Shown here in pieces: positions 50,614 through 63,789 of a stretch of DNA of 64,000 nucleotides (the first letter of the stretch is position 1; each line of letters begins with the position of its first letter). Both the position numbers and the translations under genes were made by a program. The notes beneath the pieces are model-generated. The model was not told the origin of the DNA and searched no databases. It saw only the letters and a list, made by a program, of their open reading frames with translations. The stretch comes from Anaerolineae bacterium. Lineage in GTDB: Bacteria > Chloroflexota > Anaerolineae > Aggregatilineales > Phototrophicaceae. The stretch covers positions 37,837 through 101,836 of the forward strand of contig JAEURA010000254.1 of assembly GCA_016789005.1 (NCBI GenBank). The letters run 5' to 3'.

Positions 50614-53106
50614 TCAACGCCATCCCCGCCAGGCGGTCGTCATCTGAGCGATTCGTGCAGCAGCGGCATCGCGCTGTGTCTCTACAATCCGCGACGCCGT
50701 CAGCAGCAGCACGCCGCCAGCCAGAGGGATCAGCCAGGGGTTGAGGCGCGCCGTCAGGAACAGAATACCGAAGAGCAGCACGATGGTGCCCGACAGGAAA
50801 GTGCGCCGGCGGTGGAAGATCGTCCCATGCAGCGCCAAACCAACCGCAGCCGCTCCGCCAGTGAGCCAGATCAACGCGCGGTCGGCAGATGGTGCGTCCG
50901 CCGGGGTCACAGCGGATTGAGCAGCGGTCACGTACGCCAGTAGCCCAATCGCCAGTGTCTCAAGTGAAGCCCTTCCCGCCTGATCGAAATGGGCGATCAG
51001 CAAGAGCGTCAGCGCAACCGGGATGTTTTGCAGCGCCACGCCATCCAGCTTCACCCCATAGAGCGTCAGCCACCAGGCACACCAGATGACGACAACTGCG
51101 CCCAACCGCCAGAGCGGTTCGCGGAGGAAAACGATCAGGACCAGACTCGCCAGAAAAAGTACTTTGGCGATCTGATTCACATAGGCAAATCCACCGCTGG
51201 GACCGAAGAGGTGCACAGCTGCGACAGCGATCAGCGTCCCAGCGATGACAACGGGCCGGGGTGACCCTTTCTGCTGACGCGCCAGCGCCAGGGCGACGAT
51301 ACCGATGGAGAGCAGTCCGAGCAGTGTGGCGGGCGGCAGGCTGAGCAGTCGGCTAGCTTGCAGCACCACAAACGCGGTCTGCATCAGAGCGACCGGCAGC
51401 CAGTAGCCGCGTCCGGTGCGGAAAAGCTGTTCGGCGCTGATCCCCAGCCCGAATATGGCGGCGATCACCGCTTCGCTCGGCGCGAAGAATACTTGCAGCA
51501 GCCCAATCCCCCAGAGTAACCAGCCCGCCGAGTGTACCGTCCACCCGGCGACATCCGGGATGCGATCCAGCAACCACCCTACCATGAACCAGGCGCTCGA
51601 GATCAGGACAAGACCCAGCCCCTGACGCTGGGCGGGCAGTCCCAGCGCGCCGAGGATGATCTGAAACCAGATGGCGGCGAGCCACGCCCCAAGGAGCAGG
51701 AAGGCGCTGCGAATCACGCGGTGCGCATAAGGTCGCCGTGCCGGCGGCGCAATCCAGGCGGCGAAGCCGTCCCAGAGCGGATGTTTCCCAAGCAGGACGA
51801 GCGCCGCGCTGATCAGGCTTGCCAGCACGGCGATCCCTAGATGGAGCGGCATCGTCCGCTCATCGGCGAGCGCCAGCCCGGCACCGATCAGCGCGTATCC
51901 CACGACGAAAAACGGAGCGCGCACCCCCGTGCGGAGTCGCGTCATAGCGTGACCGATGACCAGCAGCAAGACGCCGACCGCCTGCCAGACAAGACCAAGT
52001 ATCGGCAGAGATGTGAAAATGAGGTTACTGCTAATCAGCCCCATGCTCAGCGGGAATGGTGCGACGTAGAGCGCCAGGTGGGCGAAGATCGGCAGACGAT
52101 AGACGATGCCCTGCGCCAGCCACAGCGCCGTCAGCGCCAGCAGTGTCAGCGTCAGGGCGGCGTGATCCATCGTCGCCAGATTGGCAGCGGTGGCGAGCAG
52201 GCTGACGATGCTCAGACCGACGGAAACATCGGCTGTCGTCCAGCGAAACATTGCCCCCAGCATGCCCTGGACTTTTTTGCCCTTCCCTCCGCCGGAGCGG
52301 GTTACCTGACCTATCAGCACCGCCAGCGCCGCCGGCAGGATGATCCAAAGGGCAAACGTTTCTGGGCTGCCGACCCAGGTGCGGTGCGCAAATGTCCACA
52401 CACCGGCGAAGCCCCAGGCGGAGAGATGCGCCAGTACTCTCAAGCGGGTCACAACCCCCAGAATAGCGATCAGCGCTGATGCGGCAAGCCAGGTCAGGAT
52501 CGCCGCCGCCGGGAAATCCGTCGCCAGAAGCAGCATTTGTGCCGAAACCGCCATCAGAAGCAGAAAAGCGCCTGTACGATAGACCCGACGCCAGAATGGC
52601 GTGGCATGGGGAAACAGCAGCCACACGGCAGCGGCGCATGGGATGCCAAGCGCCGTCAGGTAAGGCTGTGCCAGCGCCGGAAATGTGCTGATGGCGGCGG
52701 CAGCGAAGTTCAACTGAAGGAGCAGGATCATCGGCGCGATCAGGAGATTTCGCGTGCGCCCTCCAACGATTGTCACCGCTACAGCAGCGATCAGCGAGGC
52801 GAACAACCAGAAGGCGTTCGACCAGCCGTCAGAAAGCGCCGAGCGGAGGTCGAGAAGCTGAACCAGCGCCACGCCCACCAGCCAGGCGGCAGCCGTCGAA
52901 AGCGCGCCGGTCACCAGGGGCGCATTGCCTGCCCGGCGCGAAAGCACGCTTAACCCCAACAGCGTCGCGGGCATACTGATGGCGGCGGTGACGCGAACCA
53001 GAAAGGAATCCGTCTGCAGATCCTTCCCCAGAAACAGCAGAGAGATCACCAGCAGGGCGCTGCCGGCGTAGGTCGTCAGCGCCAGAGTCCACCGTGAGCG
53101 TTCCAT
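50614..53106 (-). CDS. Large polytopic membrane protein (about 830 aa), SCO7613 C-terminal-like
   Basis: Almost continuously hydrophobic; C-terminus WLIPLAGGVLLL...E.QR...W; GGAGG RBS before ATG 53106. Confidence 0.7.
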   Translation of the reverse strand: MERSRWTLALTTYAGSALLVISLLFLGKDLQTDSFLVRVTAAISMPATLLGLSVLSRRAGNAPLVTGALSTAAAWLVGVALVQLLDLRSALSDGWSNAFWLFASLIAAVAVTIVGGRTRNLLIAPMILLLQLNFAAAAISTFPALAQPYLTALGIPCAAAVWLLFPHATPFWRRVYRTGAFLLLMAVSAQMLLLATDFPAAAILTWLAASALIAILGVVTRLRVLAHLSAWGFAGVWTFAHRTWVGSPETFALWIILPAALAVLIGQVTRSGGGKGKKVQGMLGAMFRWTTADVSVGLSIVSLLATAANLATMDHAALTLTLLALTALWLAQGIVYRLPIFAHLALYVAPFPLSMGLISSNLIFTSLPILGLVWQAVGVLLLVIGHAMTRLRTGVRAPFFVVGYALIGAGLALADERTMPLHLGIAVLASLISAALVLLGKHPLWDGFAAWIAPPARRPYAHRVIRSAFLLLGAWLAAIWFQIILGALGLPAQRQGLGLVLISSAWFMVGWLLDRIPDVAGWTVHSAGWLLWGIGLLQVFFAPSEAVIAAIFGLGISAEQLFRTGRGYWLPVALMQTAFVVLQASRLLSLPPATLLGLLSIGIVALALARQQKGSPRPVVIAGTLIAVAAVHLFGPSGGFAYVNQIAKVLFLASLVLIVFLREPLWRLGAVVVIWCAWWLTLYGVKLDGVALQNIPVALTLLLIAHFDQAGRASLETLAIGLLAYVTAAQSAVTPADAPSADRALIWLTGGAAAVGLALHGTIFHRRRTFLSGTIVLLFGILFLTARLNPWLIPLAGGVLLLTASRIVETQRDAAAARIAQMTTAWRGWR

Positions 53107-53216
53107 GAAAGCGCCTCCTATACGCGCATCCTCTGCCTTCAGCATAGAAGGAACGCCGGACGGATGGAGTAGGCGCTGCGTACGTCGCCTCCATGACAAA
53201 TGTCCAGAGGTGAGAC

Positions 53217-54467
53217 TCAGGATGTGCGGTTCACCGGAAGGTCGAGCGTGAAGGTTGAGCCAATACCAGGCTGACTGCTCAGATGGATGTCACCGCCGTG
53301 CAGACGAGCGATCTCCAGGGCGATCGCCAGTCCCAATCCTGCGCCGGGGGAATCGGTCGACAACCGAACGAATGGCAGGAACACCAGATGCGCCTGGGAT
53401 TCGGCGATGCCTGTGCCGGTGTCCTGCACTTCGATGCGCGCGTGATCTTCGCGCAGCACGGTGCGAATCGTGATCTGCCCCTGCCGCGTATACTTGGCAG
53501 CATTGGTCGCCAGGTTGCTGATCGCCTGTCGCAGTCGCAGCGGATCGCCGTCGATCTCGATCAGGGCGGGATCGAACTCCGTCTCCAGCCGTACTCCGGC
53601 GTGGAGCATCTGCCGCGCCTCATCCGCCGCCTGTGCGCACAGGGCGTTGATCGAACAACGCGCATAGTTCAACGACAGGCTTCCTGAACTCAGGCGCGCG
53701 CTGTCCAGCAGATCGCCCACCAGCCGGTCGAGATGCTCTCCCTCGCCGATGATCTGTTCCAGATAGGCGCGCTGAGGTTCTGCCGATGCGCTGCGGCGCA
53801 GCAGTTTGGCAAAACCCAGCACCGAATTCAGCGGCGTCCGCAGTTCGTGGCTGACGCGCGCCAGGAAGCGATGGCTCTGCTGACGCACTTCTTCTGCGAC
53901 GTGCGCTGTGCTGATGTCGATGGACAGATGACTGAGAAAGCGGAGCGTCTGGAAGGTGTAGGCGGCGAGCAGGATGTCGTAACTCACCAGGATGGAGCGG
54001 CTGGGTTCCAGCCGGGGCGCGCCGGGCAGCACCTCGAACACGAGGTTGACCCAGAAGGCAGCGATGCACAGGACCTGCACAAAACCGCGCTGCCGTCCCG
54101 AATACAGCATGCCGCTGATCGTGTAGGGGATGAGCGTGGTCAGCGCCGTCACCGGTCCCAGCCCCAAGATGACCATCCCCTGCAAGCCAAAAACGGCGAC
54201 GAGAGAGATCATCCAGAACAGTGATGCGCCGCCAAACCACCCCACCCCATAGATGAACGCCACAGCGCCTGCCAGAATGCCATATGCCCAGGGATGCGGC
54301 ACGTCCTGAAAGACCGCCGCCGCCCACAGGACGACCTCGCCCAGCACGAGCTGCCAGCCGCGCGTGCGCCAGTAGCGGTCGATCTGCGCCTGCGCCGTCG
54401 CCTGGACCGGTGGTGGGAGGAGGTTATCTTTGTCCGGAAGCAGCCCGCTGAAGAGTTCGCGCCACAT
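53217..54467 (-). CDS. Membrane sensor histidine kinase (HisKA-HATPase)
   Basis: SHELRTPL, NLATNAAKY, DTGTGI, F.PF, GAGLGL, GSTF; N-terminal TM bundle. Confidence 0.95.
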   Translation of the reverse strand: MWRELFSGLLPDKDNLLPPPVQATAQAQIDRYWRTRGWQLVLGEVVLWAAAVFQDVPHPWAYGILAGAVAFIYGVGWFGGASLFWMISLVAVFGLQGMVILGLGPVTALTTLIPYTISGMLYSGRQRGFVQVLCIAAFWVNLVFEVLPGAPRLEPSRSILVSYDILLAAYTFQTLRFLSHLSIDISTAHVAEEVRQQSHRFLARVSHELRTPLNSVLGFAKLLRRSASAEPQRAYLEQIIGEGEHLDRLVGDLLDSARLSSGSLSLNYARCSINALCAQAADEARQMLHAGVRLETEFDPALIEIDGDPLRLRQAISNLATNAAKYTRQGQITIRTVLREDHARIEVQDTGTGIAESQAHLVFLPFVRLSTDSPGAGLGLAIALEIARLHGGDIHLSSQPGIGSTFTLDLPVNRTS

Positions 54468-54783
54468 CGTCGGGGTCCAGGGGCTTTCTCAGATAGATGA
54501 ATTCGAAACCCGTCTGTCGCAGCGCGCAGGTTTGGTCGAAAGCGGAGGTGATGATCGTCGGAGCCTCGTGCAGGGCGCGAAGATCCTTCGCCAGACTGTA
54601 GCCGTCGCCATCCGGCAGGTCGAGGTCTATGATGTAGACATCCGGTGGATCGCTCGCTGCGCGCTGGCGCGCTTCGGCGCATGATGCGGCAGTCACCAGC
54701 CGGTGCGGAGTCAGATCGCGAATGATCGCCTCCATCAGGAAGCGCGCCGGGGGATGATCCTCGACGTAGAGGATCAGGCTCAT
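54424..54783 (-). CDS. Single-domain response regulator (REC only)
   Basis: YVEDH, IIDLDLPDGDG, ITSAF, RKP; 119 aa. Confidence 0.92.
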   Translation of the reverse strand: MSLILYVEDHPPARFLMEAIIRDLTPHRLVTAASCAEARQRAASDPPDVYIIDLDLPDGDGYSLAKDLRALHEAPTIITSAFDQTCALRQTGFEFIYLRKPLDPDDVARTLQRAASGQR

Positions 54784-55592
54784 CGTGTGACCTCATCGAT
54801 CAGGCGGTCCACACGCTCCGCCTCGGCGATAATCTGCTCGATCAGCTCCTCGGCGTCCGCCTGTTCCAGCCTGCCCTGCCGTTCCAGCCGTCCCGCCAGC
54901 AGACGCGCCAGCCCCATGAGCGTATGCAGCGGCGTGCGCAGTTCGTGGCGCACATGGGCATCAGCGCGCGGAAGTTCGCGCAGCGCTTCGGCGGCGCGCA
55001 GTGCACCTTCGCGATGATCAACATTGAGCTTGGCGTAGATGTTCGACCAGTGATTGCGCACCGTGCCGTGAGAAATGCCCAGCGCTGCTGCCGTCGCCTG
55101 GTTATCGTGACCGCTCGCCGCCAGCCGCAGAATAGCGCGTTCGCGATCGGTCAGGCGGCGCTGGCGGCGCGCCTGCGTCATGCCCAGGATCGCCGTCTGC
55201 GACAGGAATGGGCGTCCCTGGGCGACGGCACGCACGGCATCGACCATATGCAGCGAGAAGTCGTCGCTTTTCACAACGTAGCCGTGCGCTCCGGCGTCGA
55301 GCAGATCGTCGATCCAGACCGGATCGTCATAGGCGGTGAAGATCAGGATCTTCATCTGAGGTGAGCGGGCGAGCGTCTCGCGGACGAAGCTTGCCGGGTC
55401 GAACGCTGCGCCGGCAAACGCCAGATCGAGGACCAGCACATCCGGCGGAAACTGCTGAACCAGCCGGGGCAGCGTCGCAGGCTCCCCGGTTTCCCATAGG
55501 ATAGTCACATCCAGCGCCCGCGTCAGTTCCTGCCGCAGCACCTTCAGGATGAGGGGGTGATCATCTGCCAAACCGATTTGGATCGCCGCCAT
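54780..55592 (-). CDS. NarL/LuxR response regulator with C-terminal HisKA (DHp) domain
   Basis: ADDH, VLDL, FTAY and VVKS receiver motifs; LTDRERAIL...TVRNHWSNIYAKL HTH; then HELRTPL...EAERVDRLIDE. Confidence 0.9.
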   Translation of the reverse strand: MAAIQIGLADDHPLILKVLRQELTRALDVTILWETGEPATLPRLVQQFPPDVLVLDLAFAGAAFDPASFVRETLARSPQMKILIFTAYDDPVWIDDLLDAGAHGYVVKSDDFSLHMVDAVRAVAQGRPFLSQTAILGMTQARRQRRLTDRERAILRLAASGHDNQATAAALGISHGTVRNHWSNIYAKLNVDHREGALRAAEALRELPRADAHVRHELRTPLHTLMGLARLLAGRLERQGRLEQADAEELIEQIIAEAERVDRLIDEVTR

Positions 55593-55644
55593 GCCCGCAT
55601 CATTTCGTATCATCTGTCCGCGATTGTACCCCGTAAAAACAACA

Positions 55645-55676
55645 GAGGGGGGAGTCGTTCTGGCGACTCCCCCCTC
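55645..55676 (-). terminator. Rho-independent terminator of the tad cassette
   Basis: Perfect 13-bp stem GAGGGGGGAGTCG/CGACTCCCCCCTC followed on the - strand by TGTTGTTTTT. Confidence 0.85.
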
Positions 55677-55733
55677 CGCTTGATGGTGACTCAACCTCAC
55701 CCCTGGAGCACAGGAGTGAGGCTGTTCCTCTGG

Positions 55734-62952: not shown

Positions 62953-63654
62953 TCAGGCTTCGTCGTCCACCAGCACGCGCGCCTTGACCACATAGCCCCT
63001 ACCATGACGTGACTGAATGACCGCTGGACGTTCCGGGTCGTCCTCGATCTTGCGGCGGAGGTTGTGAATGTGATTGCGCACCAGCGCCGCATCGCCGACG
63101 CCTTTAGGATACTGCCACACGCCGGCAAGCAGGTCTTCCGTCGAATGCAGTTTGTGCGGGGCGCTGCACATATACTTCAGAAGGTCGAACTCGACACGGG
63201 TCAGGGTAAGTTCTCGGCTCTCCATGAATGCCCGAAACTGCGTAGGAACGATACGCAGGATCGGAACACTTTCTTCACCGTAGAGTGCCGACCGGCGGAT
63301 GTGCGCGCGGACCCGGGCGATCAGTTCGCGGGGCACGAATGGCTTGCGGATGAAATCGTCACCGCCAGAATTGAGTGCATCCACCACGTTATTGGAGGAT
63401 GTATTCCCTGTCAGGAAGATGATCGGCGTATTGGATGTCTGCGGGTGCGCCCGCAGTTTCCGGCACAGCGTGATGCCATCCATCTCTGGCATCATGGCGT
63501 CGATCACGAAAAGATCAGGCGTCTGGTCAGCAGTCTGCTCAAGCGCATCAAACCCCGAAGAGGCACGTTTTACCGTGAACCCTTCGCGGCGCAGCACAAG
63601 CTCCACCATATCCAACATCTGAATATCATCATCGACAATCATGATTTCGTACAT
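62953..63654 (-). CDS. OmpR/PhoB family response regulator
   Basis: IVDDD, IDAMMPEMDG, FLTG, KPF, LTRVEFDLL, VRNHIHNLRRKIE, GRGY. Confidence 0.95.
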   Translation of the reverse strand: MYEIMIVDDDIQMLDMVELVLRREGFTVKRASSGFDALEQTADQTPDLFVIDAMMPEMDGITLCRKLRAHPQTSNTPIIFLTGNTSSNNVVDALNSGGDDFIRKPFVPRELIARVRAHIRRSALYGEESVPILRIVPTQFRAFMESRELTLTRVEFDLLKYMCSAPHKLHSTEDLLAGVWQYPKGVGDAALVRNHIHNLRRKIEDDPERPAVIQSRHGRGYVVKARVLVDDEA

Positions 63655-63789
63655 TGTGCTACCCGACTTCGTAGTTCGAACTTGTATGAAGTATAGCTGG
63701 TCCAATGCAATTGCAGCATGGCGCTACCGTGAATAATTCATGAAATGCGCGGCGCTGAAAGGCTTCACCAGGAGGCAGTCGAAGCGCTT

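Follow-up and report, generated by a model that had tools for sequence, protein, structure and literature searches.

A cluster of three overlapping signaling genes, designated here g1, g2, and g3, is found in a 64,000-nucleotide stretch of contig JAEURA010000254.1 of an Anaerolineae bacterium (assembly GCA_016789005.1, positions 37,837 to 101,836 of the forward strand; Chloroflexota, order Aggregatilineales, family Phototrophicaceae), and this whole stretch is referred to below as the window. All three are on the minus strand, arranged head to tail; the overlap of g1 and g2 amounts to 4 bp, with the ATGA at 54780-54783 serving as the stop of the former and the start of the latter together, and that of g2 and g3 to 44 bp (54424-54467). 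They encode, in this order, a LuxR-type response regulator ending in an ATPase-less hairpin of the dimerization and histidine phosphotransfer (DHp) type, a stand-alone receiver (REC), and a membrane histidine kinase. As judged from sequence, the constant co-occurrence of the three genes points to a hitherto undescribed and very compact form of bacterial phosphorelay. Their features, as derived from open reading frames (ORFs), Pfam matches, alignments, and an AlphaFold2 (AF2) model, are as follows.

54780..55592, minus strand: g1, 270 aa from the ATG at 55592; REC, LuxR/GerE-type helix-turn-helix (HTH), and HisKA DHp, without an ATPase domain (ORF, Pfam, and AF2)
55215..55592, minus strand: REC1, residues 1-126 of g1; NarL-type receiver (Pfam, alignment, and fold search)
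54996..55154, minus strand: LuxR/GerE-type HTH, residues about 147-199 of g1 (GerE E 2.3e-15 and fold matches)
54783..54968, minus strand: DHp1 hairpin, residues 209-270 of g1 (Pfam HisKA, alignment, AF2, and DHp tree)
54424..54783, minus strand: g2, also called REC2; 119-aa stand-alone receiver (Pfam Response_reg)
53217..54467, minus strand: g3, 416-aa membrane histidine kinase with HisKA and HATPase_c, the former called DHp3 below

In g1, Pfam recognizes Response_reg (E 4.7e-11), GerE (2.3e-15), and HisKA (3.6e-10; 40 bits against a Pfam cutoff of 26.9), with no match to HATPase_c. Response_reg is the sole domain of g2 (2.6e-14), and g3 carries HisKA (1.7e-19) and HATPase_c (1.1e-26) behind a hydrophobic N-terminal half. 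The HPt domain (PF01627) has no match in g1, g2, or g3. The four putative phosphorylation sites can be read directly as codons, namely H207 of g3 (53847-53849), D53 of g2 (54625-54627), H216 of g1 (54945-54947), and D56 of g1 (55425-55427). A longer g1 ORF starting from the GTG at 55700 was rejected, given that it begins within a terminator-like hairpin described below and that the homologues begin at the position of the ATG at 55592. Taken together, the ORFs and Pfam matches bear out the original prediction of three overlapping genes with REC-HTH-DHp, REC-only, and TM-HisKA-HATPase domains; the coordinates agree with its overlaps of 4 bp and up to 44 bp, and the His, Asp, His, and Asp that it distributed over three polypeptides are all present and all invariant.

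Domain composition of the three proteins

Unlike the NarL/FixJ regulators of ~200-220 aa, g1 does not end with its GerE HTH. An 8-residue linker joins the dimerization helix of the HTH to a 62-residue DHp, and the chain ends with DHp helix 2, 54 residues past H216, so that an ATPase domain is never reached. In the AF2 model (predicted local distance difference test score, pLDDT, 86), the receiver and the HTH are followed by helices 212-239 and 244-269, and the sequence of this hairpin aligns to the DHp of HK853, ZraS, and PhoR. The PDB fold matches of g1 include LiaR, RcsB, VraR, EvgA, and NarL, and all significant ones are NarL/FixJ-type regulators of ~200 residues; these matches stop at about residue 205, and no solved structure with a DHp behind an HTH was found in this fold search. 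The receiver itself has a NarL-type alpha1, DDHPLILKIVRQEL.

This architecture is not peculiar to the window. A search of 5.8 billion proteins returned 316 matches to g1, and REC, GerE, and HisKA occur together in all of the 120 matches listed; the architecture is shared by more than 116 protein clusters. These homologues are 46-78% identical to g1, most are about 267 aa long, and they come from many independent assemblies labeled Chloroflexi, Anaerolineae, Aggregatilineales, or Phototrophicaceae. When residues 196-270 were used as the query, the DHp1-type hairpin was found only in REC-GerE-HisKA proteins. Among the closest relatives of g1 that have no DHp (L015-L043), no intermediate forms were seen; they are about 40% identical, belong to the ordinary NarL type, and have neither g2 nor g3 in their vicinity. 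An artefact, either a frameshift or a truncated kinase, was considered for g1 and rejected, as the architecture and the length are kept in over 100 clusters.

In an alignment of 54 homologues, D10, D11, D56, and K108 of the receiver and H216, E217, T220, P221, and L222 of the hairpin are invariant, and T86 is nearly so. The H-box RHELRTPLH, likewise invariant, is among the best-conserved stretches of g1. A purely structural hairpin need not keep its His.

The receiver encoded by g2 retains the active-site residues E8, D9, D53, S80, and K100, and in 85 of 85 clusters the family is stand-alone, 109-125 aa long, and never fused. Its alpha1 region reads EDHPPA(R/Q)LLMxAII, with H10, A13, L16, M17, A19, and I20 of the alpha1 face invariant among 46 homologues. 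Among solved structures, g2 is closest to KdpE and other receivers of the OmpR type; Spo0F also appears among the PDB matches. The possibility that REC2 is a duplicate of REC1 was rejected, because each is monophyletic in the tree, yet the two are not sisters.

The kinase g3 is predicted to have a cytoplasmic N-terminus and a hydrophobic block extending to about residue 190, with no large domain on the outside, and its HATPase_c keeps the N, G1, F, and G2 boxes. HATPase_c past a DHp, the feature of a sensor kinase, is present in g3 and missing from g1. The best NCBIfam matches are the receiver of the TorS hybrid kinase for g2 and TorS-type transmitters for g3; a hybrid-kinase fusion is not found here, since each of the 25 loci with the three genes together has g2 as a gene of its own, upstream of g3.

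Conservation, origin, and surroundings of the genes

Gene contexts of g1 were gathered from the encoding contigs, related loci, and genome regions, which together gave 30 distinct g1 loci, and 25 of them are complete triads in the order g1-g2-g3. The spacing between g1 and g2 in these triads ranges from -4 to +25 nt, some genes overlapping by 1 nt, with the exception of L160 (G414:C204). In this sole triad with the two genes separated, a 687-bp insertion lies between them and contains a small ORF, whose product combines a zinc ribbon (CPDC...CDDC) with two hydrophobic segments. The overlap between g2 and g3 is out of frame and spans 35-131 nt in 24 of the 25 triads (35, 38, 44, 56, 89, 92, or 131 nt). 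Within it, the N-terminus of the kinase is conserved and the tail of the receiver is not; the start of g3 is backed by the motif MW[RQK][EQ]L, kept in 25 orthologues, and the 44-nt overlap in the window is therefore valid. In three loci (L166, L170, and L178), the g2 orthologue has a C-terminal extension, reaching 133-149 aa instead of about 117, and overlaps g3 by 89-131 nt.

The distribution of the genes over genomes tells the same story. A sample of 251 genomes of the order contains 23 with g1; 22 of these 23 also have a full-length orthologue of g3, and neither gene is present in the remaining 228. In the single discordant genome, g1 lies at the very end of a contig, and this contig edge accounts for the lack of g3. 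In two other genomes (G520 and G424), g1 is unlinked, and g2 and g3 stay adjacent and overlapping elsewhere in the genome; one metagenomic contig carries g1 next to g2 with no kinase beside them. Since g2 stays paired with g3 without g1, and a g1-g2 pair exists without a kinase, g2 is linked to both other genes. The triad is a conserved, co-inherited module and not an artefact or a product of chance.

In a class sample of 400 genomes, only the window's genome has a full-length g1, and the module was encountered in no order but that of the window. Its distribution within the order is patchy, covering 9% of the genomes and 5 of the 25 species in the window's GTDB genus. In same-genus genomes (G654, G668, G669, and G672), the kinases are either 94% or 54-55% identical to that of the window, and these sequence identities suggest lateral movement or old, divergent allelic lineages.

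The origin of the hairpin was addressed with a tree of the regulators' hairpins, the hairpins of their partner kinases, and 34 other HisKA domains of the window's genome as the outgroup. In this tree, which is built on a short alignment and an outgroup from one genome only, the regulator clade (29 of 29 sequences, support 0.98) is sister to the partner-kinase clade (25 of 25, 0.85), with a joint support of 0.94. The regulator DHp thus appears to be an ancient duplicate of the DHp of its partner kinase, and the clean separation of the two clades implies that the duplication is old and has been maintained.

The two hairpins remain strikingly alike where a receiver would dock. The docking positions are near-identical (RHELRTPLHTLLGLARLL versus SHELRTPLNSVLGFAKLL), and DHp1 and DHp3 should therefore bind the same kind of receiver. 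The stretch past the His reads HELRTPL-HT-LLG-L-AR-LL in the regulator and HELRTPL-NS-VLG-F-AK-LL in the kinase. Differences are fixed at two positions, H-1 (Arg in DHp1, Ser in DHp3) and H+7 (His in DHp1, Asn in DHp3). In addition, helix 1 of DHp1 has 5 more residues ahead of the hairpin turn in 29 of 29 sequences, and only about 4 helical residues precede the His in the AF2 model, the upper bundle of full kinases being missing. At the DNA level, the H-box of g1 (54927-54949) and that of g3 (53829-53851) match in 22 of 23 nt, and in 43 of 60 nt over a wider stretch, a likeness that may stem either from constraint on the codons of HELRTPL or from occasional exchange between the DHp copies by gene conversion.

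Two further features flank the triad in the window.

50614..53199, minus strand: g4, 861-aa polytopic membrane protein, 17 nt past g3
55641..55680, minus strand: intrinsic-terminator-like hairpin upstream of g1, 17 pairs, 11 of them GC, with a T-run

The terminator-like hairpin, whose stem is followed by GTTTTT, lies between the stop of a TadE-like gene (55734) and the start of g1. The gene that precedes it is a giant PT-rich TadE-like gene, and the hairpin is predicted to set the triad apart from the Tad transcript. The neighborhood of the window is shared only by the closest relatives, L004 (78% identical) and, as judged by shared downstream genes, L008 (96%); other triads are flanked by glycosyltransferases, LexA, peptide transporters, deformylase, shikimate genes, and others. 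The triad does lie immediately downstream of the Tad cassette, as had been stated at the outset; a functional tie between the two was rejected, since a strong terminator intervenes and the flanks differ among relatives. An OmpR-type response regulator is encoded upstream of the TadE/TadG-like cassette in the window (62953-63705, minus strand) and in L004 (9-710), and no kinase gene is seen beside the former within the window.

On the other side, the gap of 17 nt between g3 and g4 holds no terminator-like site, and of the 23 triads that could be evaluated, 10 have a g4 homologue behind g3; these 10 are spread over deep branches of the family. The g4 protein has about 20 transmembrane segments by hydropathy and about 36 helices in its AF2 model, which is all-helical (pLDDT 83) and for which no fold match was found in the PDB. 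No match to NCBIfam was obtained, nor any to Pfam above the curated cutoff (two chance-level matches among 22 members). Relatives are few, 48 among 1.84 billion representative proteins, and fall into two size classes of about 820 and about 1160 aa. As g3 has no sizeable extracytoplasmic domain, g4 was considered as a membrane partner of the kinase; it may, speculatively, be a partner or target of g3, or an output of the operon.

A candidate relay and the readings that compete with it

Unlike the architecture, the sites, the co-inheritance, and the descent of the hairpin, the phosphotransfer steps with their direction, the dimerization of g1, and the role of g4 are what we infer. A linear relay running from g3 through g2 and DHp1 to the receiver of g1 is plausible and is ranked first, with a confidence that falls somewhat short of even. 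In such a relay, g1 to g4 would be one operon encoding a self-contained, four-site phosphotransfer system. As suggested by the H, N, G1, F, and G2 boxes, all intact, the kinase g3 would autophosphorylate on H207; D53 of g2, with which it is translationally coupled, would be the next acceptor of the phosphoryl group. Phosphorylated g2 would then dock on the ATPase-less DHp1 and transfer the group to H216, from which it would move to D56 of the NarL-type receiver, in the same chain or in the same dimer, and the LuxR-type HTH would be freed or activated. DHp1 might in addition be a constitutive four-helix-bundle dimerizer that sets two HTH domains side by side. Because all of these steps would be reversible, the same path could drain the regulator quickly once the kinase turns phosphatase.

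An invariant His on a hairpin without ATPase, an obligatory small receiver, and joint inheritance with a single kinase fit such a His-Asp-His-Asp system. The order of transfer has circumstantial support in gene linkage. An overlap that is kept in the split genomes (G520 and G424), with g1 elsewhere, usually marks a cognate kinase-receiver pair and favors g3 and g2 as the first pair, and the linkage of g2 to both other genes makes it the expected middle carrier. Counted on the same side are the kinship of the receivers, g2 resembling OmpR-type and hybrid-kinase receivers and REC1 being NarL-type, and the likeness of the two DHps, both of which would dock g2. NarL-type receivers usually pair with HisKA_3 or HPt donors rather than with HisKA, and REC1 could be served by tethering. 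The isolated DHp of EnvZ can take up phosphate, pass it to OmpR, and dephosphorylate OmpR~P, so that a bare DHp is competent in chemical terms. The genetic unit that expands a two-component pair to a relay is a receiver-plus-phosphotransfer unit (Williams and Whitworth, PMC3018481).

Co-evolution of the domains was assessed by the mirror-tree method, a weak one, in 25 related triads, with the HTH, ATPase, and membrane domains as controls. The strongest residual co-variation among the four DHp-REC pairs is that of DHp1 and REC2 (partial r 0.32, permutation p about 5e-4), and DHp1-REC1 stands at 0.24. Several observations weigh against the linear order. DHp3-REC1 reaches 0.29 (p about 1e-3), which, taken at face value, favors a direct path from kinase to regulator, and DHp3-REC2 shows 0.11, not significant in these triads, so that the kinase-to-g2 step is not singled out. 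Given the near-identical docking residues, the kinase may also bind any partner of DHp1. Column covariation of DHp and REC speaks neither for nor against the order, because the interface residues are almost invariant within each family and mutual information, underpowered here, is dominated by clade effects. DHp1 has kept the complete E/DxxT phosphatase motif, which fits a phosphatase role equally well, and a characterized HisKA hairpin without a catalytic and ATP-binding (CA) domain that serves as the second His (H2) carrier of a relay was not found in the literature.

The mirror-tree residuals, present for DHp3-REC1 and DHp1-REC2 and lacking for DHp3-REC2, lend themselves to a direct path with a drain, in which g3 phosphorylates REC1 directly. 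The phosphoryl group would then move back from D56 to H216 of the fused DHp and on to g2, a sink or a second input or output branch, and the lifetime of the signal would be shortened. The CheY sink of Sinorhizobium, to which this scheme can be likened, works through CheA. The docking likeness of DHp1 and DHp3 would let the kinase dock where the fused DHp docks, and the scheme also needs all four sites, all of which are invariant; triads of one kinase and two receivers are, moreover, common (PMC3018481). We nevertheless regard it as unlikely, though a serious competitor, because the split genomes keep g2 next to the kinase with overlapping ends, as is usual for a cognate kinase-receiver pair, because REC1 belongs to the NarL type, a class usually paired with HisKA_3 or HPt, and because the mirror-tree evidence is itself weak.

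Next in rank, and unlikely as well, is a DHp that carries no phosphoryl group at all. According to this explanation, the fused hairpin is a dimerization module as well as a dedicated phosphatase or docking site, with the ExxT beside the His, for REC1, g2, or both, and the kinase phosphorylates both receivers directly. The HisKA phosphatase motif, E217 and T220, is invariant, and the position of the DHp right behind the dimerization helix of the HTH, with the 8-residue linker between them, would be ideal to hold two HTHs. Phosphatase activity has also been suggested for archaeal 'HisKA, no HATPase' proteins (Galperin and co-workers, PMC5847659). HisKA phosphatase activity does not strictly need the His, yet the His is invariant in all sequences seen, and the three-way co-occurrence and the coupling of g1 to g2 are less well explained.

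A split kinase is quite improbable. Here, the ATPase domain of g3 would phosphorylate H216 directly, either with DHp1 and DHp3 paired in a heterodimer or from a docked position on a DHp1 homodimer, and g2 would only modulate the reaction. The ATPase domain of EnvZ can phosphorylate its own DHp when the latter is given as a separate polypeptide, and the HELRTPL core is identical in DHp1 and DHp3, which are sister paralogues. However, helix 1 of DHp1 has 5 extra residues in 29 of 29 sequences, so that the helices of a mixed bundle would not stay in register; DHp1 has little helix above its His (about 4 residues) and carries Arg at H-1 where the kinase has Ser, and the obligatory g2 is left unexplained. 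That the tail is a functionless remnant, either a decaying partial duplication of the kinase or a gene-calling or assembly error, has hardly any credibility left and is refuted by the conservation data, for although DHp1 derives from the kinase DHp and the H-box DNA in the window is nearly identical, the architecture, the length, and the invariant H-box are kept in over 100 clusters, down to 56% identity, from many independent assemblies, and the two DHp types form clean, separate clades.

Of the phosphorelay put forward in the original prediction, three elements stand: the three genes act as one unit in inheritance, as the 25 triads and the matching genome profile (22 of 23, 0 of 228) attest; the four sites are invariant; and the DHp of the regulator is kinase-derived, being placed in a sister clade to the DHp of the partner kinase. 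The order of transfer from the kinase to g2, then to the DHp, and finally to the regulator's own receiver is a putative one. Extending the linear relay further, we put forward tentatively, and with some doubt, that the bare HisKA hairpin on a LuxR-type regulator represents a new class of H2 carrier. The source of such a carrier would be a second copy of the partner kinase's DHp; it would be fed by a Spo0F-like receiver and would deliver in cis, with tethering, and not divergence of the interface, insulating the last step, besides acting as a dimerization domain. With the lineage-restricted g4, the genes would constitute a four-gene membrane-signal relay found in one Chloroflexota order alone.

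According to the current view, the second His carrier of a phosphorelay has to be either an HPt domain or a pseudo-kinase of the Spo0B/ChpT type. If the linear relay is true, a 60-residue DHp hairpin fused to the terminal regulator widens the known repertoire of relay parts, and a simple evolutionary route leads from a two-component pair to a relay, whereby the kinase hairpin is duplicated onto the regulator and a receiver is added. It would also offer a minimal, genetically compact module for synthetic signaling circuits. In addition, the triad makes a concrete test case, easy to purify, for an annotation problem of long standing, namely the role of the many 'incomplete kinases' with HisKA and no HATPase. 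Because of the strict three-way co-occurrence, the partners of this ATPase-less DHp protein are already known, which is rare for orphan signaling parts; the architecture and the clean co-occurrence would be notable to specialists.

Comparison with known systems

In full-text literature searches, no description of a REC-LuxR-HisKA protein was found. The closest described class is that of the archaeal 'HisKA, no HATPase' proteins, which, together with REC-(PAS)n-HisKA proteins, have a conserved His and a proposed role as phosphoacceptor, in phosphotransfer, or as phosphatase, none of them having been characterized (Galperin et al. 2018, PMC5847659). They differ from g1 in that they have no DNA-binding domain, belong to other lineages, and form no defined three-gene module, whereas the g1 family is from Chloroflexota and has a fixed REC-LuxR-DHp order. 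A likeness also exists to the isolated domain A (DHp) of EnvZ in vitro, a bare HisKA hairpin dimer that can carry phospho-His, pass the phosphate to a receiver, and work as a phosphatase; unlike g1, it is an engineered fragment and not a natural protein.

With regard to the terminal regulator, the triad resembles RcsC-RcsD-RcsB, BarA-UvrY, EvgS-EvgA, and BvgS-BvgA, in all of which a NarL/FixJ-type regulator is fed by a second His carrier. In these systems, that carrier is a monomeric HPt four-helix bundle located on the kinase or on RcsD, whereas in the triad it would be a HisKA hairpin on the regulator itself.

Phosphotransferases that are kinase-derived and of the DHp rather than the HPt type are known from CckA/ChpT/CtrA-CpdR of Caulobacter crescentus, PhyT, and PhyK/LovK, and a single-domain receiver, MrrA, shuttles phosphate in the alphaproteobacterial stress response (PMC3433190, PMC5898713, PMC5964349, PMC9981736). 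ChpT and PhyT differ from g1 in that they retain a CA-like domain and are stand-alone proteins. Moreover, the intermediate receiver of CckA is fused to the kinase, whereas that of the triad is the separate gene g2, and the FATGUY motif of alphaproteobacterial intermediate receivers is only loosely echoed in g2 (VSAY).

The relay of KinA-E, Spo0F, Spo0B, and Spo0A in Bacillus subtilis shares the His-Asp-His-Asp logic proposed here. Its first Asp is on a stand-alone receiver of ~120 aa, like g2, its second His is on a kinase-derived helical-hairpin dimer, and its terminal acceptor is a DNA-binding regulator. The triad differs in having one dedicated kinase. Spo0B, in turn, is a separate protein with a C-terminal pseudo-ATPase, whereas the hairpin of g1 is bare, retains the HisKA H-box in full, and forms the C-terminus of the terminal regulator; no sequence relationship between this hairpin and Spo0B was detected. 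Although g1 has the kinase-derived hairpin with an invariant His that is typical of Spo0B and ChpT, it is not a member of their class, because it has no pseudo-ATPase domain, nor is it stand-alone. The comparison of mechanism is nonetheless apt: by analogy, the triad would work most like Spo0F-Spo0B-Spo0A and CckA-ChpT-CtrA, with a kinase-derived DHp as H2, and also like the Rcs, Bar, and Evg systems, with a NarL-type terminal regulator.

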